Shown here: piece after piece, positions 1-12,204 of the stretch
How the letters are laid out: each line of letters opens with the position of its first letter
Numbering within the stretch: the first letter of the stretch is position 1
Assembly (NCBI RefSeq): GCF_019669925.1
Contig: NZ_AP019779.1
Location: 1,877,292 to 1,901,291, forward strand
DNA: 24,000 bases
Direction: 5' to 3'
From: Methanobrevibacter arboriphilus
GTDB taxonomy: Archaea; Methanobacteriota; Methanobacteria; Methanobacteriales; Methanobacteriaceae
Translations under genes and position numbers: made by a program
Notes under the pieces: model-generated
What the model saw: only the letters and a program-made list of their open reading frames with translations
The model's database searches: none
Told to the model about the DNA's origin: nothing

Positions 1-254
1 TGAATATGCTTAATTTTTCCTTCCATCGAGTGATATTTATTTTTGATGTATCTCCCAATTAAAATAATAAAAATAATTAAAGAAGCGAAAATAATAATAA
101 TTACAATAAGTGTATAGAAATAATTCTCTATAACACCGAATAATGTTAGTATTTCAGTAACTAATATTCCTATAAAAGCTTGAAACCATCCTTTTTGTTT
201 ATTATATACAAAACGGAGTTTATATGATAAATCTTTAAAACACATGATAATCAT
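1..254 (-). CDS. Small membrane protein (two predicted TM helices), 3'-truncated by the window edge; last visible gene of the minus-strand cassette
   Basis: Hand translation of the minus strand from the ATG at 254-252 gives MIIMCFKDLSYKLRFVYNKQKGWFQAFIGILVTEILTLFGVIENYFYTLIVIIIIFASLIIFIILIGRYIKNKYHSMEGKIKHI..., open to position 1. There are two hydrophobic stretches of about 20 aa. The ATG shares its A with the TGA stop (256-254) of the upstream gene (TGATG overlap). It is missing from the ORF track only because it has no stop inside the window. Confidence 0.5.
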   Translation of the reverse strand, partial: MIIMCFKDLSYKLRFVYNKQKGWFQAFIGILVTEILTLFGVIENYFYTLIVIIIIFASLIIFIILIGRYIKNKYHSMEGKIKHI

Positions 255-868
255 CAAATCATAGCATGTTCAAATGTTTGAAGCACTGTTTCTTTTGAGT
301 TTTCATCATATTCATCAGGAATCATTATAGATTTTCTATAATAATAAAAAGAAATATCATCAGTTAATTGAATATCTGCTTCAATTAGTCTGTAATCTTT
401 TCCTAATTCTTTTTGACGATATTTATCTTCAAGTTCATCATCAATGTCGCCATCAACAATAGTGCCATTGTGCACAAATTTTAAATCAAAATCTTCAGCA
501 TTAAAAAGCATTTTATGTTCATTATATGAATTAGGTGAAAAATTTTCTAGTTCCTCATCCATTTTTGACTTAAAAAAAAGTTCTAATTTTTCAAATGCAT
601 CATCTTTTAATTTTTGATTTAAAGATTCAATTAATAATAACTTTGAGCTTAATCGAATTTCAAAGAATATTTTTTTATTTAAACCTTGTAAAACTACATG
701 TCCATTGATTTTTGACTTAATTTGCGAGTTTTCTTCGTCATTTTCCTTCAGTATATGTCTGTTATCAAAAAAAACATCATCTGCGTTTTTTTCTTTAAGT
801 TTATTAATATCAGTATTTTCTAATTTTTCTGATAATTCTTCACTTATTTTGTAAAGATAATAAAACAT
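254..868 (-). CDS. Hypothetical acidic protein, 204 aa, no recognisable domain
   Basis: ORF track. A GGTGGA Shine-Dalgarno (879-874) lies 5 nt upstream of the ATG at 868 and sits inside the 3' end of the upstream gene, giving a 29-nt overlap (840-868). My hand count is about 46 D/E against about 28 K/R. Confidence 0.7.
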   Translation of the reverse strand: MFYYLYKISEELSEKLENTDINKLKEKNADDVFFDNRHILKENDEENSQIKSKINGHVVLQGLNKKIFFEIRLSSKLLLIESLNQKLKDDAFEKLELFFKSKMDEELENFSPNSYNEHKMLFNAEDFDLKFVHNGTIVDGDIDDELEDKYRQKELGKDYRLIEADIQLTDDISFYYYRKSIMIPDEYDENSKETVLQTFEHAMI

Positions 869-2087
869 TTTTATCCACCAAATATTTTATATTCTCTTCT
901 ATTTTCTTTTTCACTTTTTCAGGGTATTCTTCAGTAACACAATTATTATCAAACAAATAAATTGGAGGTATCTTAGGACATTTTTCTTCTAATTTTTTGC
1001 AATGGTTTTCTCTATATCCAATAAAGTTATAAATAGTGTTTGAATATTCATCAAAAAGTTTATCTTTCAATTCATCGATAAAAGTTATGTCAGGTATTTT
1101 TTCAGAGGATTTTAATTTATTCCATTTAAAATATTCAATTAACAAATTGTTTAAAAATGGCAAAGATAGTTTGATTTTTTGACTATAATCTTTCTTTCGA
1201 ATACTATTGGCTGAATGTATTCTTATAAGTGATTCATCTTTTTTGATATCTACTTTGAATCCAATAGTGAATCTTGCTTTCCGATAAATAAATTTCCCTT
1301 TTAATTCAGATATTATTAATTTATTTATAATTCCATAAATAATGGGGAATGATAAATCTTTTCGATTATTATCAACAGTTAATATATTTTCAGATACATT
1401 ATCTTCATCTTCATCTTCAGGTTTTTCAGTTTCAAATTTCTTAAAATCTTGCAATTTTAGATTTTCATTAATATTTCCGCTAGGATTTAATTTTTTCTTA
1501 TATACTAACCATAGTAAGAAACTAGGGTTAATGTTTATTGTCTCCCAATCAAATGCTAATTTTTTATCTTTTTTATAAATATTGAGTTTATTTTCCAACA
1601 ACTTTATTGGTTTTTTACTGTGAGATTCGGCACCACATACAAATATTAAATCAAATGAAGGCACTAAAAAAATATCCACAAAAATGGATTTATCATCTGC
1701 TATATTAGTTTTAATATAACATAATTTGTCTAATTTAGCATGATTTTCATTACCTGATTCATAATTTTTTGAAATTTTAAAGTCTTGTGGTTTTCCTGTC
1801 CAAAATTCATTTTCAATGCCTAAAAAACTAAAATCAGATTGTACTGATTTTTTATAAATGAATTTGTCATAAAAACCATTTTTTTGATTAATATTATCTT
1901 CATCCGGTTTATATAGTTCTTCAGATTCTAAATCTGCAACTAATTTACTTGATAACTTTTCTGAAAGATTTTTTGTTTTAATTATTTTGGTAAAATATAA
2001 AGTTAGTTGCTCCGGTCTTTTAGGGGTATTATTATCTTTATCTGTCATCATTTTTCTCCTAATTTCAGAAACTTTAATATTAATCAT
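840..2087 (-). CDS. Hypothetical protein, 415 aa as the maximal ORF (403 aa from the alternative start at 2051); no recognisable domain
   Basis: This is the longest ORF on the strand. The internal ATGATG at 2051-2046 is preceded by AGGAG (2060-2056) and may be the true start. The ORF is K/N/E-rich with an acidic linker, EKPEDEDEDN. Several Cys lie near the C-terminus (HCKKLEEKCP...NNC). Confidence 0.75.
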   Translation of the reverse strand: MINIKVSEIRRKMMTDKDNNTPKRPEQLTLYFTKIIKTKNLSEKLSSKLVADLESEELYKPDEDNINQKNGFYDKFIYKKSVQSDFSFLGIENEFWTGKPQDFKISKNYESGNENHAKLDKLCYIKTNIADDKSIFVDIFLVPSFDLIFVCGAESHSKKPIKLLENKLNIYKKDKKLAFDWETININPSFLLWLVYKKKLNPSGNINENLKLQDFKKFETEKPEDEDEDNVSENILTVDNNRKDLSFPIIYGIINKLIISELKGKFIYRKARFTIGFKVDIKKDESLIRIHSANSIRKKDYSQKIKLSLPFLNNLLIEYFKWNKLKSSEKIPDITFIDELKDKLFDEYSNTIYNFIGYRENHCKKLEEKCPKIPPIYLFDNNCVTEEYPEKVKKKIEENIKYLVDKNVLLSLQNK

Positions 2088-2103
2088 TCACAATTTAATT
2101 TTT

Positions 2104-2430
2104 TCATTTTTCTTTTATATAATCTTCATATTTTTTCAGGAATTCACTTTCTAGTGATTCCCAATCATCATCAAGTTTTTCTCTTCCATCTTTCTTCGAT
2201 TTATATGAATCATGGAGAAAATTCAATAGATTATCTAAATCTTCAATCATTTCTATTGTTCCATCTTCTATAAATTTTTCCTGTGCTGCAGAACTCCAAT
2301 TAAGATATCTATCTTTATCCAAAAGTTTCATTATATCTAAACTTAATTTTATTCGAAATCTGTATATTTCAATTTTATTAGATTCTAGTGCTATTTTTCT
2401 TATTTCTGTTTTATCCTCTTCACTTAACAT
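2104..2430 (-). CDS. Small hypothetical protein, 108 aa, probably helical; first gene of the cassette
   Basis: ORF track. The downstream gene starts 16 nt after its stop, or 52 nt if the 2051 start is used. A TATA-like box lies about 25 nt upstream of the ATG and there is no SD, which suggests a leaderless first cistron. Confidence 0.65.
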   Translation of the reverse strand: MLSEEDKTEIRKIALESNKIEIYRFRIKLSLDIMKLLDKDRYLNWSSAAQEKFIEDGTIEMIEDLDNLLNFLHDSYKSKKDGREKLDDDWESLESEFLKKYEDYIKEK

Positions 2431-2450
2431 AATATCATATTTAATCGATA

Positions 2451-2460
2451 CATATAAAAA
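2451..2460 (-). promoter_or_regulatory. Candidate archaeal TATA box for the minus-strand cassette (leaderless transcript)
   Basis: The minus strand reads TTTTTATATG, centred about 25 nt upstream of the ATG at 2430. No SD lies between them. Archaeal TATA boxes sit at about -26/-27 from the TSS. Confidence 0.35.
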
Positions 2461-2892
2461 CTTAATTATTTATCATAAGATTTTTACCTGTATATATTTA
2501 AATAAATATATATCTATTAAAATTCAATTTTAAATATAACAACTAAAAAAATAATTTTACTTAAAAATTAGTATTATAATTTTCAATTTTCACAATTGAT
2601 AAAATTAATGGTCATTTATAAGAGATTATTGGATATTTTTTGATGGGTCTGGATGGAAGCATAATCCATGGGGTATTTTAGATTCAAATAACATATTTAG
2701 ATTCTAATGCTTATGGAAAGAATACATATAATATTTGTATAGTCCTTATTTTTTTATTTAATTAGTTACTGATAAAAAATTAAAAAAAATAAAAACAAAC
2801 TTTGATAAGAAACTAATACGGCACATATTAAGACATAATTTCACAATATATTTATTAAATCATGTAAAATTATTATTTTGAGGATTGGGCGT

Positions 2893-4047
2893 ATGTTATT
2901 TCATAAAAAGATAGACGAAATTTCAGAAAAGGATATAAATAATATAGTTGGAAATGAAGTTTTTGAAGATAAATATTTGGAGTATAAATCTGAGTATAAT
3001 CATTCAGATAAAATAAAATTCAAGTTAATAAAAACTGTTTGTGGATTTGCAAACTCAGATGGTGGTTTATTAATCTATGGGATAACAGAAGACGAAAACC
3101 ATACTCCTTCAGAAGTTACAGGGGTTAAATTAGATAGTAGTTTTGATAATGAAGTTAATTGGATTGAAAGTATAGTTTCTTCAAATTCGGAGCCAAGTAT
3201 TTCGAATATAGAAATAAGACAAATAGAAATTAAAGAATCTGATAGGATTATCTTGATTATTAAAGTTCCAAAAAGCTGGAACCTTCCACATAGAGTTGTG
3301 CAAGGAAAACCTAATAAAAAAAGTGAATCTAAAAGAGAATTTTTTGTCAGACGACAATCGAAAACAGTTCCATTGGAGATTGACGAATTGAAAAATCTAT
3401 TTAGTTTTGCAGGAGATGTTCATGATAAGATTCATTTATTTAGAGATAATCAAATAGCTAAAGTCGTTTCTGACAATGTATTTATATGCACTGACTCTCA
3501 AATAGCATTACTCATTGATTTAATTCCTTTTAACAGTTTTAATAATGTTGAATTTGATATTAGAGAAACAAAAGATCAAGTTCCAACTTTTGGCCAAGGA
3601 GATTCTAGATATGGGGAATATAATTTTGAGGGAGTTATAAGTAAATCAATGATTCACTATTCTCAAATCTATAGAAATGGGATTATTGAAGGTTTAGTGT
3701 CTTCGAACAGATTTTTAAAGGTTCCTCTTAAAGAATTTTTTGAATATACACTAAATTTTATAAATGATTCTATAAAATTATATGAAAAGATAAATTTTTC
3801 ACCACCCTTCGCTATTTTTATATCACTTATAAATATCGAAAATCGTAATCTTGAAACTTTGTTTTTTGATAAGGAAGCTATTAGTGATAGAAATGTTTTA
3901 CCTGGTCATGAAATCATGATTGAAAAGTATTTATCTAAAAATGAGATAGCATTTAAACTCAAAACTGTTTTTGATTCATTTTATAATCATTTTGGGATTG
4001 AAAATTCTCCTTTTTACGATGAAGAAGGCAATTGGAAGAAAAAATGA
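2893..4047 (+). CDS. AlbA_2 (Schlafen-like, 'divergent AAA'/putative DNA-binding) domain protein with an uncharacterised C-terminal half
   Basis: The N-terminal ~180 aa match AlbA_2 hallmarks in order: EDKYLEYKSE, then VCGFANSDGGLLIYGITED, then IILIIKVPKSWNLPHRV, then EFFVRRQSKTVPLEIDELKNLF. The ATG at 2893 is preferred over the TTG at 2878 because GAGGA lies about 9 nt upstream of it. Confidence 0.8.
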   Translation: MLFHKKIDEISEKDINNIVGNEVFEDKYLEYKSEYNHSDKIKFKLIKTVCGFANSDGGLLIYGITEDENHTPSEVTGVKLDSSFDNEVNWIESIVSSNSEPSISNIEIRQIEIKESDRIILIIKVPKSWNLPHRVVQGKPNKKSESKREFFVRRQSKTVPLEIDELKNLFSFAGDVHDKIHLFRDNQIAKVVSDNVFICTDSQIALLIDLIPFNSFNNVEFDIRETKDQVPTFGQGDSRYGEYNFEGVISKSMIHYSQIYRNGIIEGLVSSNRFLKVPLKEFFEYTLNFINDSIKLYEKINFSPPFAIFISLINIENRNLETLFFDKEAISDRNVLPGHEIMIEKYLSKNEIAFKLKTVFDSFYNHFGIENSPFYDEEGNWKKK

Positions 4048-4070
4048 ATTTTTATAATGCATAATTAGAA

Positions 4071-4078
4071 TTTATATA
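4071..4078 (+). promoter_or_regulatory. Candidate TATA box (TTTATATA) upstream of the HEPN-protein gene
   Basis: An exact TTTATATA is centred about 31 nt upstream of the ATG at 4106. This implies a very short leader or none. It is only a sequence match. Confidence 0.3.
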
Positions 4079-4105
4079 AACTTTTAGTTGTTTTCAGTGG
4101 ATACA

Positions 4106-5659
4106 ATGTCATTAAAAAATCTTAAAATCCCCCATATTCCATATTTAAATTTTAATCAGGATAAAGATAAAAATATCATTTTTCAAGCTATCTCAGGTGT
4201 TATTAAATCCACCTCAGAAGATAAAAAAGATGATATATTTGATATTAAATTAGTGATTTCAAATGATATAAAGATATATTTTTCTATTAGTCTTTTTAGT
4301 ACTTATTTTTTTAAAAAATATGGCGAATATGAAGAAGATAAAAAAAATATTGTAGATGGAACTCCTGATATAAGTTTTTATTCAAACATCTATTTTGTTG
4401 ACTCAAAAAACCGATATGATGTGAAAATAAAAAATTTTTTCGTAGATAGTTACAAATTTAACTTTTCAGGAGATTATTCAACACTCAAAGCATATATAGT
4501 GGGAGTCTGTGAAGAAATAGTTGTTTATGATAATGATTTTTCAGATAATGAAACTGTCGAATCATGGGAAATAATAGAAAATACTATTTTTAGTCAACCC
4601 AAAGGCTTTGGATTTAAAAATATCCAGATTGAAAAACTATTCTTAAAAGGTTTGGACACTAATGAATTTAATAGTGTCAATTTGAATAAAAAATGTATTA
4701 ACCAGTTTAAATATGCTACAGGATACTTTTATTATAAAGATAAGTTTAAAAATTTGAATAAATGGGATAAACGATTAGATAATATTTATTATTTGTTAGC
4801 TTTCTATAATTCTGATTTTAATAATCGTAGAATTACTTTAATTGAAGGAGAAAACAAAACAAAAATGATTTTCAGAGATAGGTATTTAGGAGAATCAAAT
4901 GGCAAAAATATATTTGAAAAAAATGGATATAATTTATTTAATCTTATTGATTCTACTTATTCTCCTCTAACTAATTTAGAACTTAAAGAGATAGATTTTA
5001 AGTTACTTATTGAATATTTTATTTATATAGAAAATGCATATAATATTAAAAATGAAATTCTGTTCTCTTCAATATTTTTAGAAATATTAAAAAATCAATA
5101 TAAAACAAACAATGATTCAACATTGTTAGATAATCTTAAAAATGCACTAAATGTGCATGAATTAAATTCTAACAAATTGTTTGAAATTCTTCATGCTAAT
5201 TATGGAATTGATTTTAAAAAGATAGAGAAAAATATTTTAAATGAATACAAGAATTCTAAAGATAGAAAAAATATTCTTAAAATGTTTGCTATGTTTAAAT
5301 CTAATTATTTCTTAAATAAATTAAAACTATATAGAAACAATATAGTGCATACTGGAAAAATGAATATTTCTGTGGAGGAAAATATTGAAATCATTGATGA
5401 AATTTCTAAATATTTGAAAAAAAGTTTCAATGGTAATAAAAACGAAGAAATTTTAGATAAAATTTCTAATAGTCTTAATGATGAGATAAATTCTGGAAAT
5501 TTTAGAGAGGATTTTGATTTGCAACAAAATTTTCTTAAAGAATTTATAATAATTATATTATTAGCTATTTTTGATGTGAATTGCAACATAAAAAGAAACA
5601 CTATAATGGGTAATAACATTAGTAGAAATTCTATAGACTATCTCAATCAATTTAAGTAA
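4106..5659 (+). CDS. Large protein with a C-terminal HEPN-type Rx4H motif (ApeA-like architecture); putative RNase effector
   Basis: YRNNIVH is encoded at 5333-5350 (R-N-x3-H) in a helical C-terminal region, preceded by a ~400-aa unassigned N-terminal region. The ATG at 4106 is preferred over the TTG at 4088. The gene starts 58 nt after the AlbA_2 gene on the same strand. Confidence 0.7.
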   Translation: MSLKNLKIPHIPYLNFNQDKDKNIIFQAISGVIKSTSEDKKDDIFDIKLVISNDIKIYFSISLFSTYFFKKYGEYEEDKKNIVDGTPDISFYSNIYFVDSKNRYDVKIKNFFVDSYKFNFSGDYSTLKAYIVGVCEEIVVYDNDFSDNETVESWEIIENTIFSQPKGFGFKNIQIEKLFLKGLDTNEFNSVNLNKKCINQFKYATGYFYYKDKFKNLNKWDKRLDNIYYLLAFYNSDFNNRRITLIEGENKTKMIFRDRYLGESNGKNIFEKNGYNLFNLIDSTYSPLTNLELKEIDFKLLIEYFIYIENAYNIKNEILFSSIFLEILKNQYKTNNDSTLLDNLKNALNVHELNSNKLFEILHANYGIDFKKIEKNILNEYKNSKDRKNILKMFAMFKSNYFLNKLKLYRNNIVHTGKMNISVEENIEIIDEISKYLKKSFNGNKNEEILDKISNSLNDEINSGNFREDFDLQQNFLKEFIIIILLAIFDVNCNIKRNTIMGNNISRNSIDYLNQFK

Positions 5660-5851
5660 ATTTATTTAAAAGAGAATTTATGCAAAAAAATTAACGCTCG
5701 TTTTCCAATCACAGCTTCTTTTTTAGAAGATAGCTCAATGTATTATGAGATTCAAGCTAGAAGAGAAGATGAAGAAGCTGAAATAATGGATTTAGAATAT
5801 TATTTTATTCAAAAATTTAGTAAATTGAAACTTCATTATCCATGAAAAAGA

Positions 5852-7000
5852 CTAATTATTACTACAATAGTTGTTATTATCCATTTCTAAAATAGAATTT
5901 TTCATATCTATCATGAAAAATTCAAGTGTTTGCTGATAAATTATACTGTCCATACTAGGTTTATATGTCAATAGCCAAGTTGTGGCTTGACAAATAGAAA
6001 TAGCTGTGTTTTGGATTGTTTCTCCAAGCCCATAGTTACTCGCCCCCCAATGTAAAATTTTTTCCTGTTTTTCACTAGGTAAACTTGTATTATATAATCC
6101 TCTTGAAAGGCCATGAATTGAAGCTGATGAAAGATTATAATAGGGTATCAGATGGTCAACATTAACAAATTTAGCCAAAGCTTTAAAATATGGTTTACAA
6201 ATTTCTTTAGGAATCCAACCCCAATCATAATCAAATTCTTTACCATATTTTTCAATTAATTCATCCCTTTGCTCTTTAATTTTTTCAAAATTATCAGTAT
6301 TTGGGATGTAATCATCATCAGGATGTAATCTTTCATAATAATTTTGATATTCTTTAATGTCTTTGTATGTTCTAATAATTTCATGTTCCATATATCTTTT
6401 TGTAACATAAAACTCATTTTTTGATAAGAAAGCTGAAATGACAGATAATTCATATAAAGTTCTCCATCTTGAATTAGCACCATCCCCATAACCTGTCTTT
6501 AAAAGAGTTAATATCTCATTAGATACACGGAGTGCTCTTGCATGAAGTTGCATTAAAACATTTAATTTACAATCATCACTATCTTTATTATAAATATCTC
6601 TAGAATGAAGATTGACTGACTCGAAGCACATAATAATCAAGACTTCAAGGTTACCAAGTATTTCTCCCCATTGGTCATGCACCAAATTTTCAAATTCATT
6701 TCTTTCATCAGCATATTCTTCTAGCATTGAATTCATATTTTCTTTTATAAATTTTACTAACTCATTAGAACCTGTAGATGTTGCATCTGTTAGTAATTTG
6801 GGGAGTTTGTCATTAATAAATTCATCATTAGGAAAATATCCTTTAACACTGATATATTTTTCTACAATAAATGATAAAATTTTTTCTCCAGTATTAGGCT
6901 TTTCAATCCCATAATTATTTATTTTCCTTTTTTTATAGTTTGTATTAATTATTATTAGATGTGAATGTTTAATGGAATGCTGTTTTCTATTGTATCTCAT
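5852..7000 (-). CDS. Hypothetical helical protein, 382 aa, possibly DUF5677-like
   Basis: Long ORF with non-repetitive composition. The segment LHARALRVSNEILTLLKTGYGDGANSRWRTLYELSVISAFL resembles, from memory, the conserved core of DUF5677-type proteins. That assignment is unverified. Confidence 0.65.
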   Translation of the reverse strand: MRYNRKQHSIKHSHLIIINTNYKKRKINNYGIEKPNTGEKILSFIVEKYISVKGYFPNDEFINDKLPKLLTDATSTGSNELVKFIKENMNSMLEEYADERNEFENLVHDQWGEILGNLEVLIIMCFESVNLHSRDIYNKDSDDCKLNVLMQLHARALRVSNEILTLLKTGYGDGANSRWRTLYELSVISAFLSKNEFYVTKRYMEHEIIRTYKDIKEYQNYYERLHPDDDYIPNTDNFEKIKEQRDELIEKYGKEFDYDWGWIPKEICKPYFKALAKFVNVDHLIPYYNLSSASIHGLSRGLYNTSLPSEKQEKILHWGASNYGLGETIQNTAISICQATTWLLTYKPSMDSIIYQQTLEFFMIDMKNSILEMDNNNYCSNN

Positions 7001-7070
7001 TTTTTTATTATTTTTTGTAGATGGGGTTTTTTTTGAAAGATTTTTGTGTGTTTTTTTCTTTGTTTGTTGT

Positions 7071-7908
7071 AGCTTGCTGTATGCATACAGATAAACACCT
7101 TGGTAGTATGTTCCTGTGATATTGTATGGTTTTGGTTTATTGGTATTGTTATCGCTGTCTGCATACAGATCAACACCATATGTTCCTGTGATATTGTATG
7201 GTTTTGGTTATATGTGGCGTTGTTATCGCTGTATGCAGCCAGAGCAACACCATAGTCTGTTCCTGTGATATCGTTAGGCTTTGGTTATATGTGGTATTTT
7301 TGCTGCTGTATGCAGCCAGATAAACACCTCGTGATGTTCCTGTGATGCTGCATTGTCTTGTTTATATGATGTGTTGTTATCGCTGTCTGCATACAGAGAA
7401 ACACCATTGCCTGATGTTCCTGTGAATTGTTGTGTAATCTTGGTTATATGTGGTATTTTTGCTGCTGGATGCAGACAGAGAAACACCATCGTAGTATGTT
7501 CCTGTGTTTGTTATTTTTGGCTTTGGTTTATTGGTATTGTTATCGCTGTATGCATACAGCTCAACACCATAGTCTGTTCCTGTGGATTGTTGTGTAGTTT
7601 CGGTTATATGTGGTATTTTTGCTGCTGGATGCAGACAGATAAACACCATATGTTCCTGTGATGTTGTTGTGTAGTCTTGTTTATATGGGATGTTGTTATC
7701 GCTGTATGCATACAGATAAACACCATCGTATGTTCCTGTGATATTTTATTGGCTTTGGTTTATATGTGGCGTTGTTGCTGCTGGATGCATCCAGATAAAC
7801 ACCTAGTGATGTTCCTGTGAATTGTTGTATTGTCTTGTTTATATGGTTGTGTTGTTATCGCTTTATGCATCCAGATAAACACCATTGTATGTTCCTGTGA
7901 TGTTGTTG
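7071..7908 (-). pseudogene. Decayed, inverted copy of the adhesin-like gene's NNITGT...GVYL.AYSSNNTNITFA repeat cassette (about 11 units of ~72-80 bp)
   Basis: The reverse complement matches 9346-10143. Exact inverted matches are 7219-7269 with 9511-9561 (51 bp), 7832-7861 with 9551-9580 (30 bp) and 7785-7820 with 9593-9628 (36 bp). Only short, frame-hopping ORFs are present (6997..7179, 7274..7489, 7377..7649). Confidence 0.85.
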
Positions 7909-8560
7909 AGCTATTTTTTTGGGTTTTTTTTTCTTTTTTTATTAGTTGTTTTTTTATTGTTTGGGTGGTTTGTTGTTCTTTGTTTGGTGTTTTAGTTGTT
8001 TTGGTTGTTTTTTGTTTTTTTATTAGTTGTTTTTTGCTTTGTAGATGTTATATTGTTCTTTGTTTTAGTGTTTTGTTTTATTTTTATTCTTTTTTATTAT
8101 TATTAATCGTTTTTGTTCTTTTGTGGTGGTTTATTTTTGTTGTAGTTTTTTTGAATATTTTTTTGTTTTATATATGGTTGTGCTTGATAACAGCTATTTT
8201 GTTTTTGATGATATTGTAATTTTATTTTTTTTATTTTTGTTTTTTTATATTCTGTATGTTTATGTTGTTTAGCTGTTATTTTTTAGATTTTCTTATTATT
8301 TTTTTATTTTATATTACTTGTTTTTTATTTTTTTTAGTGTTTATTTTTTATTTAGCTTTATTATATTATTATAATAGGTTTGTATTGTTTTAAAGCTTTT
8401 ATATTTGTTATATTTCAGTTTAGAGTTTTTTATTTATTTTTTTTAGTTGTTATTTTTTTATTTTGTTTTTTGTTCTTATTTTTGTCTTATTCTTGTTTTT
8501 CTTCTTTTTTTATTTTTTAAACAGCTATTTCACTATTTTTGCGGGGGGGGGGGTGGCTAT
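7909..8560. repeat. Low-complexity tract made almost entirely of T and G on the plus strand
   Basis: By direct reading there are dozens of T5-T10 runs interspersed with G/GT, and very few A or C. TTTTTATTAGTTGTTTTTT recurs near 7945 and near 8015. Confidence 0.8.
8543..8553. repeat. Homopolymeric G11 tract upstream of the adhesin-like gene
   Basis: gcGGGGGGGGGGGtgg read directly from the sequence. It lies 163 nt upstream of the ATG at 8716. Confidence 0.9.
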
Positions 8561-8630
8561 TGTTTTTTCACTTTTTTTTGTAGTAGTAAGGTTTTTATAG
8601 TAGTTTTTTTATATTTATTATAAAAAGTGC

Positions 8631-8666
8631 ATAGTGAGTGTTCATTTAATAGTGAGTGTTTATTTA
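8631..8666 (+). repeat. Tandem 18-bp direct repeat in the adhesin-gene upstream region (possible operator or leader element)
   Basis: ATAGTGAGTGTTCATTTA (8631-8648) is followed immediately by ATAGTGAGTGTTTATTTA (8649-8666), with one mismatch. Confidence 0.8.
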
Positions 8667-8715
8667 TTGTTGTGCTTTTTTTTTGTTTATAATTTTATAG
8701 GAGTGAGAATTATTT

Positions 8716-9573
8716 ATGTTTAAGAATAAGTTTTTTGTTTCGTTTGTGTTAGTACTAGCTTTTTTATTTTTGTTTAGTTTGTCTAGTGTTAGTGCAGGTG
8801 AGTATGATTTTACTAGTAGTAATACTACTGAACAGTTTCAGAATGTTATTGATACTGATGTGGGGGATGAGTTGATTATTAATTTGGATGATGATGGTAA
8901 TTATTCTCTGGGTCAGATTAATGTGACTCGTAATGCTACTATAGTTGGTAAGAATCATAATGTTAATATTACTGGATCAGGGTCTGGTGTTTTGTTTAAT
9001 ATTACGAATAGTAGTGTTCGTATTATTAATTTAACTATCACTGGTTATACTAGTGCTATTGTTGGTAATAGTAGTGATTTAACGGTTACTGGTAATAATA
9101 TTACTACTAGTGGTATTAGTATTAATATTAGTAGTAGTGGTGATAATTTAACGAATATAATTATTGAGGATAATGTTATTGTTTCTTCTGTTAGTAATAT
9201 TTATTATGGTGCTGTTTTTGTTAATGGTAATGGTATGGCTATTTCTTTTGTTTCTTTTATTAATAATAGTATACGTGGTAATGGTACTAGTAATTCTAAT
9301 GGTGTTCGTATTAATTCTAAGGGTATTAATAATTTGACTTTTGATGGAAACAACATCACAGGAACATACGATGGTGTTTATCTGGATGCATCCAGCAGCA
9401 ACAACACCAATATAACCTTTGCCAACAACAACATCACAGGAACATACAATGGTGTTTATCTGGCTGCATACAGCAGCAACAACACCAATATAACCTTTGC
9501 CAACAACAACATCACAGGAACAGACTATGGTGTTGCTCTGGCTGCATACAGCGATAACAACACAACCATATAA
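8716..9573 (+). CDS. Asn/Thr-rich adhesin-like surface protein, N-terminal part (signal peptide plus parallel beta-helix repeats), ending at an in-frame TAA
   Basis: AGGAGTGA SD upstream of the ATG. The signal peptide is MFKNKFFVSFVLVLAFLFLFSLSSVSA|GE. The body carries 26-27-aa NNITG-type coils. The stop at 9571-9573 is in the same frame as the next ORF. Confidence 0.8.
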   Translation: MFKNKFFVSFVLVLAFLFLFSLSSVSAGEYDFTSSNTTEQFQNVIDTDVGDELIINLDDDGNYSLGQINVTRNATIVGKNHNVNITGSGSGVLFNITNSSVRIINLTITGYTSAIVGNSSDLTVTGNNITTSGISINISSSGDNLTNIIIEDNVIVSSVSNIYYGAVFVNGNGMAISFVSFINNSIRGNGTSNSNGVRINSKGINNLTFDGNNITGTYDGVYLDASSSNNTNITFANNNITGTYNGVYLAAYSSNNTNITFANNNITGTDYGVALAAYSDNNTTI

Positions 9574-9759
9574 ACAAGACTACACAACAACATCACAGGA
9601 ACATCACTAGGTGTTTATCTGGATGCATACAATAGTAATAACTCACAATTTACATTCGACCACAACAATATCACAGGAACAATACGCGATGGTGTTTATC
9701 TGGAGGCATACAATAGTAATAACTCACAATTTACATTCGACCACAACAATATCACAGGA

Positions 9760-12204
9760 ATGAATTATGGTGGTGTTTATCTGAGGGCATACAATAGTAA
9801 TAACTCACAATTTACATTCGACCACAACAACATCACAGGAACATCAAGCTGTGGTGTTTATCTGGAGGCATACAATAGTAGCAATACCAATATATCCTTT
9901 GCCAACAATAACATCACAGGAACAGACTATGGTGTTTATCTGTATGCATACATGAGTAACAATACCAATGTATCTTTCATTGGTAACAATATCTTAGGAG
10001 CACGTGGTGTTACTCTGTATGCAGACAGCAGCAACAACACCAATATAACCTTCGCCAACAACAACATCACAGGAACATCATACTATGGTGTTTTTCTGAG
10101 GGTATACAGCAGCAACAACACCAATATAACCTTCGCCAACAACAACATTACTGGTGTTAGTTATGGTGTGAATTTTTATTCTAATAATGGTAATATTAGT
10201 AGTGTTATGTTTTTGAATAATACTATAAATGCTACTGGTGGTAGTGGTTTTTATTTTGTTAATGGTGGTAGTGGTGCTATTAATGTGACTGATTTTATTA
10301 TCAAGGGTAATAATATCTTTGCTACTAATGCTGGTTTGAATTTCAGTGGTCTTAAGGTTGGTTCTCTTGTTAATGTTACTGTTGAGTATAATAGGATTAT
10401 TGCTCCTGTTGGTGTGAATATTACTGGTTTTTATAATGGTAGTAGTTTTGATTTTAATTGGTGGGGTGTTAATGATATAACTGGTAAAACTTTAGGTGTT
10501 GATACGGTTAATCATTTTATTTTGAATGTTACTAATCTTAATAGTTTGGATAATCTTCATCCTGGCGATGATGTTAGTTTTGCGTTTTTAGTGCTGAATA
10601 CTACTCTTGTTAATGATGGTGTTGAGTATTTGCCTTATTTTGTGGTGAATGGTACTTATAACAATCAGACTTTTTATGTTAATAATTCTAGTAATTTTAC
10701 TGGTAATTGGACTGTGTCTAACGTTGGAGATAATGTTTTTGTTGCGACTTTGGATAGTCAGGATGTGGATTTCAGATTTTCTGAAAGTAAGTTGGATACT
10801 AATTCTACTATTAGTGTGGATGATGTTCATGTTGGTACTATTGCTAGTATTAGTGGTCAGTTGGATAATTATGCTGGTAATGGTTCTGATTTGTTGAATG
10901 TTACTGTGGATGGTAACCTTTATGAAAATGTTGTTATTAATAGTACTGGTGGTTGGAATTTAACTTATTTGACTAATCGTACAGGAAACATCACAGTAAC
11001 TGTTGATTATTCTGGTAATGATAATTATACAAGTTTTAGTAATAGTACAAGTTTTGATGTGCTTAAAAATAGTACTAACTCTACTATTGATGTTTTTGGT
11101 GATTTTAGGGTTGGTGAAAATATTACTATTAGTGGTATTTTGGTTGATGTTAATAGTGATCCTATAGATAATGCTCAAATGACAATTATTATTGGTAATG
11201 AGTCTTTTAATGTGACAACTAATAGTAGTGGTGTTTGGAGTCTTGTTTATGCTCCGCTTCATGGTAGTGAGTTCTTTACTTGGGTTAACTGGGCTGGTAA
11301 TGATAATTACACAGGTTTTAATAATAGTACTAGTTTTAATGTTAGTAAGTTAGCTAGTAATTCTAGTATTGTTATTCCTGTTGATATTAAGGTTAATGAA
11401 ACAGTTTTAATTTCTGGTGTTTTATCTGATGAGAATAATAATACAATATCTGGTGCTAATTTAGAAGTTATTATTGATGGTGAAACCTTTAATGTGATTA
11501 CTGATTCTGTTGGTTTTTGGGGTTTAAATTATACTTCTGAACATTCTGGTGTTTTTAATTTATCTCTCTTTTATCAGGGTGATAGTCGGTATGTTGGTTT
11601 TGTTGAAAATAAGGTTTTTAATGTTAGTAAGTTAGCTACTACTTCTAGTATTAATATTCCAAGTAATGTTAAAGTAGGAAAACCATTTAGTGTTTCTGGT
11701 GTTTTGACTAGTGGTGGTAAACCATTGGCTAATGCTAGTGTTCTTGTTATTGTTGATGGTAAAACTTATAAGGTTACTACTAATGGTCTTGGTGTTTGGA
11801 AACTGTCTTATACTCCGAAAATAGCTGGAAAATCTACTATTAAGGTTTATTTTGCTGGTAATAATGATTATATTGGTTTTAATGTTAGTAAGACTTTTAA
11901 AATTGCCGGGAAAGTTAATATAAGGATTGTTAAGATTTCTAAGCTTGTTAAAGTGGGTAAGTATAATGGTTTTAATCTTTATAGTAAAGTTTACACTATT
12001 AAAAATGTGGGATCTGCTTTAGGTTCTAAGGATTATGTTAAGTATTTTAAGAATTGGTATTTGGAGAAATTGTCTAAGACTAGTAAAATTGTTAAGTATC
12101 AGTTTAGTGCTAAGTCTAGGGTTTTAAAGGTTCAAGTTAAGAATTTAGGTGTTGGAAAACAAGTTAAGTTGAAAATACTAGTAACACATAGAAAAAGACT
12201 ATAA
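9760..12204 (+). CDS. Asn/Thr-rich adhesin-like surface protein, C-terminal part (beta-helix repeats, four ~93-aa Ig-like repeats, K-rich tail)
   Basis: Same frame as 8716..9573. Codons 9574-9759 are open and continue the repeat (TRLHNNITGTSLGVYLDAYNSNNSQFTFDHNNITG...). The four tandem modules span about 10780-11910, for example SKLASNSSIVIPVDIKVNETVLISGVL...FNV. Together the two parts form one 8716..12204 gene of 1161 sense codons with a single internal TAA. Confidence 0.8.
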   Translation: MNYGGVYLRAYNSNNSQFTFDHNNITGTSSCGVYLEAYNSSNTNISFANNNITGTDYGVYLYAYMSNNTNVSFIGNNILGARGVTLYADSSNNTNITFANNNITGTSYYGVFLRVYSSNNTNITFANNNITGVSYGVNFYSNNGNISSVMFLNNTINATGGSGFYFVNGGSGAINVTDFIIKGNNIFATNAGLNFSGLKVGSLVNVTVEYNRIIAPVGVNITGFYNGSSFDFNWWGVNDITGKTLGVDTVNHFILNVTNLNSLDNLHPGDDVSFAFLVLNTTLVNDGVEYLPYFVVNGTYNNQTFYVNNSSNFTGNWTVSNVGDNVFVATLDSQDVDFRFSESKLDTNSTISVDDVHVGTIASISGQLDNYAGNGSDLLNVTVDGNLYENVVINSTGGWNLTYLTNRTGNITVTVDYSGNDNYTSFSNSTSFDVLKNSTNSTIDVFGDFRVGENITISGILVDVNSDPIDNAQMTIIIGNESFNVTTNSSGVWSLVYAPLHGSEFFTWVNWAGNDNYTGFNNSTSFNVSKLASNSSIVIPVDIKVNETVLISGVLSDENNNTISGANLEVIIDGETFNVITDSVGFWGLNYTSEHSGVFNLSLFYQGDSRYVGFVENKVFNVSKLATTSSINIPSNVKVGKPFSVSGVLTSGGKPLANASVLVIVDGKTYKVTTNGLGVWKLSYTPKIAGKSTIKVYFAGNNDYIGFNVSKTFKIAGKVNIRIVKISKLVKVGKYNGFNLYSKVYTIKNVGSALGSKDYVKYFKNWYLEKLSKTSKIVKYQFSAKSRVLKVQVKNLGVGKQVKLKILVTHRKRL

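Follow-up and report, generated by a model that had tools for sequence, protein, structure and literature searches.

Introduction

No gene families of gut and environmental Methanobacteriales are larger or less understood than those of the adhesin-like proteins (ALPs), which are thought to mediate contacts with syntrophic partners and hosts. To our knowledge, cassette-type systems of surface variation have so far been described in bacteria and eukaryotic parasites. In one of them, the vls system of Borrelia burgdorferi, a surface-protein gene with a promoter has next to it an inverted, contiguous array of partial copies that have no promoter. Short mosaic pieces of this array turn up in the gene being expressed, conserved sequence borders the variable segments, and the array stays constant as the expressed copy varies. 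The first three of these features have counterparts, and the fourth a possible one, at an ALP gene of the archaeon Methanobrevibacter arboriphilus, which is described here. The gene lies in a 24,000-bp stretch of DNA (the window; positions 1877292-1901291 of contig NZ_AP019779.1) from a single-contig genome of 2.39 Mb with a G+C content of 25.4%, referred to below as the source genome. It is interrupted by one in-frame TAA. The stop codon is located in a repeat unit that can be assembled from pieces of an inverted array upstream of the gene, and it was probably brought in from that array by gene conversion.

An ALP gene split by a single stop codon

Positions 8716-12204 were translated in one frame and gave 285 sense codons, the TAA, 876 sense codons and a terminal stop, a total of 1161 sense codons. 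The open reading frames (ORFs) at 8716..9573 and 9760..12204 share this frame and the 62 codons between them are open. The original prediction, that a single in-frame TAA splits an otherwise intact adhesin gene of 1161 codons, was upheld by this translation. The N-terminus is signal-peptide-like as read from the translation. Matches of the upstream part to the Pfam families Beta_helix and NosD were near threshold; Beta_helix (PF13229, cut-off 25.9) scored 24.9 bits in the upstream part and 29.2 bits in the downstream part. CarboxypepD_reg (PF13620) scored 47.3 bits, and Big_3_5 and Filamin also matched. Homologs carry the name "adhesin-like protein [M. arboriphilus DSM 1125]" and the genome holds at least 11 adhesin-like paralogs. 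The interrupted gene is an ALP of the right-handed beta-helix plus Ig-like type. It shares with the ALP families of Methanobrevibacter and Methanosphaera the signal peptide, the PbH1-type repeats and the Ig-like or CarboxypepD_reg modules, together with a large family of paralogs in M. arboriphilus. A CofD gene lies downstream. The exact 285-aa product had no entry in the protein collection searched, and Rfam gave no match in 6800-10300.

The lesion was judged to be recent because 876 downstream codons are still open in an AT-rich genome (25% G+C). With the stop after codon 285 of 1161 and an intact syntenic ortholog (see below), the gene appears to have been inactivated recently. If it is expressed as predicted, the product would be a signal-peptide-bearing secreted fragment of approximately 285 aa without the Ig-like and C-terminal domains, and loss of function would be expected.

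The stop lies in a hybrid repeat unit

Each repeat unit consists of a head of approximately 48 nt, homologous in both arms of the locus, and a tail of approximately 30 nt, which differs between the arms. The head is composed of ATCACAGGAACA, a loop of 3, 6 or 9 nt, and GGTGTT-NNN-CTG-NNN-GCA-NNN-AGC, and encodes NITGT-loop-GVxLxAxS. The alternating GVxLxAxS pattern alone suggests that the variable head positions are surface-exposed. Tails of the coding array (R) read ..AACAACACCAATATAACCTT(T/C)GCCAACAACAAC, encoding NNTNITFANN. Tails of the left inverted array (L) are an A/C-rich variant, for example ..AATACCACATATAACCAAGAT.. or ..CCATATAAACAAGAC.., and are found in approximately 100 units of upstream inverted arrays (three loci in the source genome, a sister species and metagenome contigs).

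The stop lies in R3, the third unit of the coding array. The R3/R4 region was compared with the left array in reverse complement, and four overlapping maximal exact matches of 51, 31, 39 and 36 nt covered R3 wholly; the last two extend into R4 (Table 1). It had been predicted that a stop-bearing 30-mer recurs exactly in the inverted array at 7832-7861 and that the flanks 9511-9561 and 9593-9628 are exact copies of other left-arm units. Both were borne out. The 30-mer has exactly two occurrences in the window, at 9551-9580 on the plus strand and 7832-7861 on the minus strand, and it was matched in none of 100 shuffles; the flanks are the heads of LA9 and LA2. The CATATAAACAAGAC variants expected near 7354 and 7672 are also present, in LA7 and LA3 respectively. 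Compared to a canonical unit R3 contains two indels and approximately 10 substitutions, all of which can be templated by left-array sequence, in agreement with the two compensating indels and the out-of-frame stretch noted at the outset.

In its own frame CATATAAAC reads aCA-TAT-AAA-C. One extra base upstream in R3 shifts the frame to give ATA-TAA, and a compensating length difference restores it before R4. The L-type tail is a formerly coding variant (..NNT-TYKQ(A/D)N-NITGT..), since units 7-15 of the left array on contig C39 of the sister species (G004) are all multiples of 3 nt and read openly as ..NNTTYKQANDITGT.. The stop is the out-of-frame reading of an L tail that once coded. The open stretch on contig C39 (L032, 1282-2135) runs for 258-268 codons to a K-rich tail and a stop and has no start codon or N-terminal region.

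Within the coding arrays of the source genome a left-type tail was found only in R3 and in an identical copy of this unit in a paralog, gene D. The motifs CATATAA[AC]C... and CACATATAACC occur genome-wide only in the three inverted arrays, R3 and its copy in D, a count that excludes five scattered matches of a looser motif elsewhere in the genome. The 51-mer of the LA9 head is present only in LA9 and in the TAA units of the window gene (gene A) and gene D. The exceptional features of R3 are the left-type tail within a coding array and the 51-nt match, which is confined to the array of the same locus apart from the copy of the unit in D.

Probable import from the array of the same locus

The original prediction held that the stop was probably imported by recombination or conversion and did not arise as a point mutation. 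The distribution of the tails, an intact ortholog, the same-locus origin of heads, a second hybrid unit and the templated complex change all support this. Orthologous loci were compared, as had been proposed. The ortholog in strain ANOR1 (L037, GCA_000513315.1) also adjoins CofD, with 95.9% identity in the flank on the CofD side. Its frame is open for 1199 aa, its 8 units all have canonical tails, and an inverted array of 14 units lies upstream. As the syntenic gene is intact and has no such unit, the TAA unit represents a derived state.

The origin of the heads was examined by searching the first 45-48 nt of each coding unit for the longest exact match to each left array, with a threshold of at least 40/45 nt. 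Thirteen of 31 units matched the array of their own locus: 5/8 in ANOR1 (ortholog of A), 6/11 in the ortholog of locus B in the near-clonal assembly GCA_027925065.1 (L038), 1/10 at A, 1/1 at B and 0/1 at C. Five family genes without an upstream array (39 units; P0041 and P0027 included) served as controls and gave one match in 351 unit-by-array comparisons (Fisher p ~6e-15, a test which treats related, non-independent units as independent). Two exact segments of the local array suffice to tile most of the remaining heads in array-bearing loci, and archive segments thus appear as mosaics in the expressed gene, as in cassette systems. The orthologous loci of the two strains have different coding heads, each set matching its own array, which places the exchange after the divergence of the strains and within the locus.

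At locus A units R1-R4 can be tiled from the same-locus array and R5-R10 cannot. R4-R6 (9592-9831) are three consecutive units with an NSQFTFDHNN tail subtype, and their heads are not tileable from any left array. Array-derived sequence was for this reason assigned only to the promoter-proximal R1-R4.

Several donor heads have their native place at an equal position of paralogous L arrays (LN10~LB9~LC7b, LN12~LB11~LC8, LN5~LA5~LB5 and LA9~LB10). The L arrays of the source genome and of GCA_027925065.1 are 100% identical, and the locus-B coding arrays of the same two assemblies differ by ten units. These results support the L arrays as the stable partner and L to R as the probable direction of transfer.

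A second hybrid unit at locus B

Unit RM5 of the B-ortholog in GCA_027925065.1 has 46 nt identical to LM6, including the left-type extra C, joined to a canonical R tail. The resulting unit of 79 nt shifts the frame by +1, and the gene falls into two ORFs, one of 515 aa and one of 856 aa. By its sequence RM5 is a second case, independent of R3, in which left-type sequence has entered a coding unit. It is not attributable to the assembler, because the L-type and coding-type sequences share only approximately 8 nt at the junction. In this ortholog the matched heads are in mirror-collinear order, with L units 2-3-4-5 and 9-10-11.

The near-clonal pair is 99.8-99.9% identical over 14 kb, yet differs by the ten units at locus B (G000:C1:2245316-2245409 compared to L038:5661-6537). 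The source genome has one unit and an intact 917-aa frame there; the near-clonal assembly has 11 units and the frameshift in unit 5. Locus B of the source genome consists of the head and tail of RM1 followed by post-RM11 sequence, as a deletion between identical tails would produce. It may illustrate reversal of an interrupted state, the alternative being a collapse of the assembly at B in the source genome. The truncated OFF state of gene A could similarly be reversed by deletion between identical tails or by re-conversion, for which locus B gives some support. R2 and R9/R10 of gene A share long exact stretches.

Probable spread of the stop to a paralog

Gene D (start 816994, minus strand) is located 1.07 Mb away and consists of 283 codons, a TAA and 838 codons. 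It has no left array. A tract of 1,789 bp that includes the TAA is 100% identical between A and D and is flanked on both sides by sequence of only ~60-85% identity. The junction between D-specific sequence and the left end of the tract is also present in a contig of an independent assembly (P0140). Comparison of the tract with other paralogs did not decide the donor between A and D. R3 and R4 match the array of A itself, and on this basis A was taken as the probable origin. The simplest history would be that the stop was first imported at A and that an ectopic conversion then carried it from A to D. Both genes appear truncated and would encode signal-peptide-bearing fragments of approximately 285 aa that lack the Ig-like and C-terminal domains.

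Paralog G (G000:C1:2122697-2126336) is a multiply frameshifted pseudogene without left-type sequence. Gene death in this family therefore also occurs by ordinary indels.

Layout of the locus and its left array

The two arms of the locus form an imperfect inverted repeat of ~0.8 kb around a segment of 1.45 kb. Three family members of the source genome (loci A, B and C) have a block in common in which left array, T/G-rich spacer, promoter and gene are collinear; it is 86-91% identical between loci. Each of the three upstream L arrays has 11-13 units and is promoterless. A contiguous, promoterless archive of partial copies thus lies beside a single expression site, as in cassette systems. The coordinates of the features are given in Table 1.

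Table 1. Features of the interrupted ALP locus and related loci. Positions refer to the window unless marked as genome positions.
Feature	Position	Strand	Remarks
Left array LA1-LA11	7026..7901	-	Heads intact and in frame; tails A/C-rich and frame-breaking; K-rich remnant at the end
LA9 head	7219..7269	-	51-nt exact match to 9511-9561
LA3 tail and LA4 start	7650..7688	-	39-nt exact match to 9566-9604
LA2 head	7785..7820	-	36-nt exact match to 9593-9628
LA1 segment with CATATAAAC	7832..7862	-	31-nt exact match to 9550-9580
Spacer and promoter region	7909..8715	.	T/G-rich; includes G11 run at 8543-8553
ALP gene, 5' part (locus A)	8716..9573	+	Signal peptide, beta-helix N-terminal region, units R1-R3; 285 codons to the TAA
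Tract identical to paralog D	9023..10811	+	1,789 bp, 100%; D copy at genome 814905-816693, minus strand
Coding array R1-R10	9355..10156	+	Units of 75-81 nt
Hybrid unit R3	9511..9591	+	81 nt; head = LA9; tail of LA1/LA3 type, one base out of its original frame between compensating indels
Premature in-frame TAA	9571..9573	+	From translation
Downstream gene part	9574..12204	+	876 codons and stop; R4-R10, remaining beta-helix, Ig-like modules, K-rich C-terminal domain
R4 start	9592..9628	+	9593-9628 is an exact LA2 head copy (36 nt); continues the left-array-derived patch
Locus B gene start	2244690 (genome)		
Locus C gene start	79779 (genome)		

The same layout was found at the syntenic locus of ANOR1, at the B-ortholog of GCA_027925065.1, at two loci of the sister species and on metagenome contigs. 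Loci B and C, ANOR1 and the sister species have retained the spacer along with both arms. Scanning of metagenomes for the left-type motif gave four contigs with the same architecture, none of which extends to R3. Among 121 family genomes the motif was found only in the source genome and the sister species, where it is again located upstream of a family gene and in inverted orientation. Because draft assemblies frequently end at such repeats, "not found" among the 121 genomes does not show absence.

In the L arrays of the source genome a start codon, an N-terminal region and any long ORF are all lacking. LA units are 72-82 nt long and mostly frame-breaking, with stops in all three frames. In eight left arrays the heads vary codon by codon and the loop length was divisible by 3 in 96/96 parsed heads, and the inter-head tails were spread across the three mod-3 classes (28/31/29). 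The left arrays are therefore not uniformly decayed. The description of the inverted array as decayed in the original prediction fits the tails, which are frame-scrambled, and fails for the heads, which are pristine and in frame. The pristine L heads could themselves be maintained by copying from R to L.

The first unit in all four left arrays of the species, LA (7862-7870), LB, LC and LN, contains GCATAAAGC, an in-frame TAA within an otherwise intact head. In the sister species this motif is in unit 4 of the C39 array and is absent from the C1 array.

On the minus strand of 5852-7200 the last LA units and the K-rich remnant are in an open frame with a DUF5677 ORF (7000..5852), with no stop between them. 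This is probably coincidence, as the neighbours differ at the other loci. To the left of the array lies a strain-variable defence island, with AlbA_2/SLFN, DUF5677, AbiTii and an integrase in the source genome (window 1-7000). The equivalent island in ANOR1 (L037:1-7200) encodes SMODS and SLATT, PIN_8, GmrSD and HEPN proteins.

A poly-G run is located ~155-195 nt upstream of the start codon in many family members. It is G11 at all five source-genome loci that carry it (A, B, C, D and F), G12 in ANOR1, G15 in the near-clonal B-ortholog and G13 in the sister species. The run could be a hypermutable homopolymer or a consensus artefact of the source assembly.

Proposed mechanism

The reading preferred here is that short-tract gene conversion between the inverted arms, usually limited to the heads, ran into a divergent tail, and it was given a probability of roughly 0.7. 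The arms would exchange sequence by short-tract homologous gene conversion, through strand invasion or intramolecular pairing. A heteroduplex would form in the homologous heads and would normally end at the heterologous tails, and the R heads would thereby turn into copies or mosaics of the L heads at their own locus. A single tract, or a small number in succession, would have overrun an L-type tail and placed R3 in the gene, where the L tail CA-TAT-AAA would be read as ..ATA-TAA.., a stop. An ectopic 1.79-kb conversion between A and D would have followed later, most likely from A to D.

We infer the recombination mechanism from its agreement with the observed unit anatomy, distribution of unit types, same-locus specificity of the matches, intact ortholog, second hybrid unit and identical tract. 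If conversion tracts end at heterologous tails, heads would be exchanged while tails stay distinct across species. Arm-to-arm conversion would also explain the mirror-collinear runs of heads in the B-ortholog, and rare overshoots of the tract would explain the frame-breaking tails of R3 and RM5.

Several observations weigh against this reading. Exact matches of 24-39 nt between any family coding array and any left array are a common background, because each head segment has few variants. The 30- and 36-nt matches of R3 are consequently unremarkable as lengths, and so small a number of variants should by itself produce some mosaic matching. No single present-day L unit is collinear with R3 (LA9 head, LA1 middle, LA3 end), so that several events or a vanished donor are needed. 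Coding heads of locus C and of the sister-species C1 locus have no full-length match to their own array. One L unit of locus C, LC7b (genome ~78336-78416, ~78360), carries an R-type tail, AGCAGCAACAACACCAATATAACCTTCGCCAACAATAAC. This tail would represent a transfer from gene to array, and exchange is therefore not strictly one-way. Ordinary arm-to-arm concerted evolution was accordingly taken as the default.

A further reading is tentative and was thought rather less likely than not to hold. The upstream arrays may be the maintained head libraries of an archaeal cassette system, in which tail overshoot, unit deletion and the poly-G run would give reversible OFF/ON states. The corresponding idea that same-locus conversion continually rewrites the surface-exposed loop and strand residues of the beta-helix coils is possible to the same limited degree. 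In that case the array would serve as a selected donor library or an on/off switch. The difference between the near-clonal assemblies at locus B is a hint of frequent switching.

Alternative explanations

The alternative that survives best is an assembly or polishing artefact, in which R3, or the 1.79-kb identity of A and D, results from collapsed or cross-polished repeats and at least one gene is intact. This was considered unlikely overall. The TAA rests on a single assembly, and all other assemblies of the species break at or before the coding array: the CofD-anchored contigs of 10 assemblies end within or just past the 3' end of the adhesin gene, DUF5677-anchored contigs end inside the left array, and the contig of the D locus ends just before the coding array. 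All poly-G runs of the source genome are exactly G11 while related assemblies have G12, G13 or G15, which hints at consensus smoothing, and locus B has one unit here compared to 11 in the near-clonal assembly. An assembler could not invent two indels, approximately 10 substitutions and L/R junctions that share only ~8 nt, however, and the single 2.39-Mb contig resolves arrays of 10-13 units at many loci. An analogous hybrid unit is present in an independent assembly at another locus, and an independent contig shows the same left edge of the A/D tract at D. The hybrid unit itself is therefore unlikely to be an artefact. For the presence of the stop in both A and D an artefact is a genuine concern, as collapse or polishing may lie behind the exact identity of the two, and only one gene would then carry the stop.

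An L unit could also have been left in the gene by a double inversion, in which the segment with the promoter and the 5' part of the gene turned round twice through crossing-over between the arms at different breakpoints. Inverted arms of ~0.8 kb flanking 1.45 kb permit inversion, sap-type systems of Campylobacter fetus operate in this way, and an R-type tail is present inside one L array (LC7b). Double inversion predicts an R-type unit in the L array of the same locus, and LA1-LA11 have none; at locus C, where the L array does contain an R-type tail, the gene lacks an L-type unit. The orientation was the same at every locus and assembly examined. In three independent assemblies 431-761 nt from the DUF5677 side into LA were 100% identical to the source genome with no alternative junction. 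An invertible-segment switch would show both orientations; only one was seen, and no alternative junctions were found among the loci and assemblies examined, a limited sampling. Inversion was regarded as improbable.

Still less probable is a local origin, in which R3 acquired its indels and substitutions in place or represents an ancestral type of unit, its likeness to the left array being due to common descent only. The arrays do share ancestry, and the limited diversity of variants makes short exact matches common. About a dozen coincident changes would be needed to give an exact copy of L sequence over 31-51 nt, the 51-nt head is found in no array but that of the same locus, no such tail is present in any other coding array of the genome, and the ortholog has no R3-type unit. 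The 876 downstream codons, which are open and indicate a recent lesion, also weigh against a local origin.

Equally remote is the view that the gene is functional because the stop is bypassed by recoding or frameshifting, or because the downstream part is expressed from an internal ATG at 9760. The downstream frame is intact, and public sources annotate an 814-aa ORF. We know of no recoding of TAA in Methanobacteriales. The alternative frames around R3 run into stops or nonsense, a product from 9760 would have no signal peptide, and the intact downstream frame is explained by the recency of the lesion.

A diversity-generating retroelement was rejected, as no reverse transcriptase was found in five Pfam-scanned ORFs around the locus or in the gene calls of the orthologous loci, and the L/R differences include indels and all base classes with no A-specific pattern.

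Significance and comparison with known systems

With gene conversion between the arms as the preferred reading, the locus would represent a sequence-level mechanism that rewrites and switches off ALP genes, with a promoterless inverted array donating modules of ~48 nt that are sometimes lethal to the gene. If the arrays are selected donor libraries, archaea possess cassette-type surface variation. If head libraries and OFF/ON states are both confirmed, Archaea would have their first described recombinational system of surface and phase variation. The way in which these arrays are assembled affects ALP counts and "pseudogene" calls for methanogen genomes.

In a full-text search of the literature on ALPs in Methanobrevibacter no paper on phase variation was found. 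An ALP comparison (PMC13658579) has no mention of pseudogene, recombination, gene conversion, inverted or stop codon. Among the archaeal items listed for literature on conversion, silent cassettes and surface protein, only gene conversion for the equalisation of genome copies in Haloferax appeared. In these searches no archaeal report was found of swapping between arm and gene in several loci and strains or of cassette-type variation, and no description of the inverted arrangement was found for methanogen ALPs.

The vls system of Borrelia differs from the M. arboriphilus locus in several respects beyond the likenesses given above. The locus is in an archaeon and is not driven by host immunity, and there are three such loci per genome and not one. 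The donor units are single repeat coils in a tandem array and not whole cassettes. Their tails are frame-broken and able to kill the gene, and transfer is not strictly one-way (LC7b).

Pseudogene-templated conversion is known from chicken Ig psi-V, Anaplasma msp2, Neisseria pilS and Treponema tprK, and here too a non-functional copy would donate short patches. In the disease-causing conversion of human CYP21A2 by CYP21A1P, defects of the donor inactivate the recipient, as they would with R3 and RM5. Unlike in these systems, donor and recipient at the present locus are the arms of one inverted repeat around a promoter, and the exchanged modules of ~48 nt are separated by heterologous spacers.

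The third likeness is to conversion between the arms of palindromes, such as human Y-chromosome palindromes and plastid inverted repeats, in which inverted arms are kept alike by non-reciprocal copying. The matched heads are mirror-collinear in the B-ortholog, as such copying would give, and in template-switch mutation at quasi-palindromes complex multi-base changes are likewise templated by the other arm. In contrast to these palindromes, the arms of the M. arboriphilus locus are not homogenised as a whole: in different species the tails of the two arms have remained distinct, and it is the alternate modules, the heads, that are exchanged.

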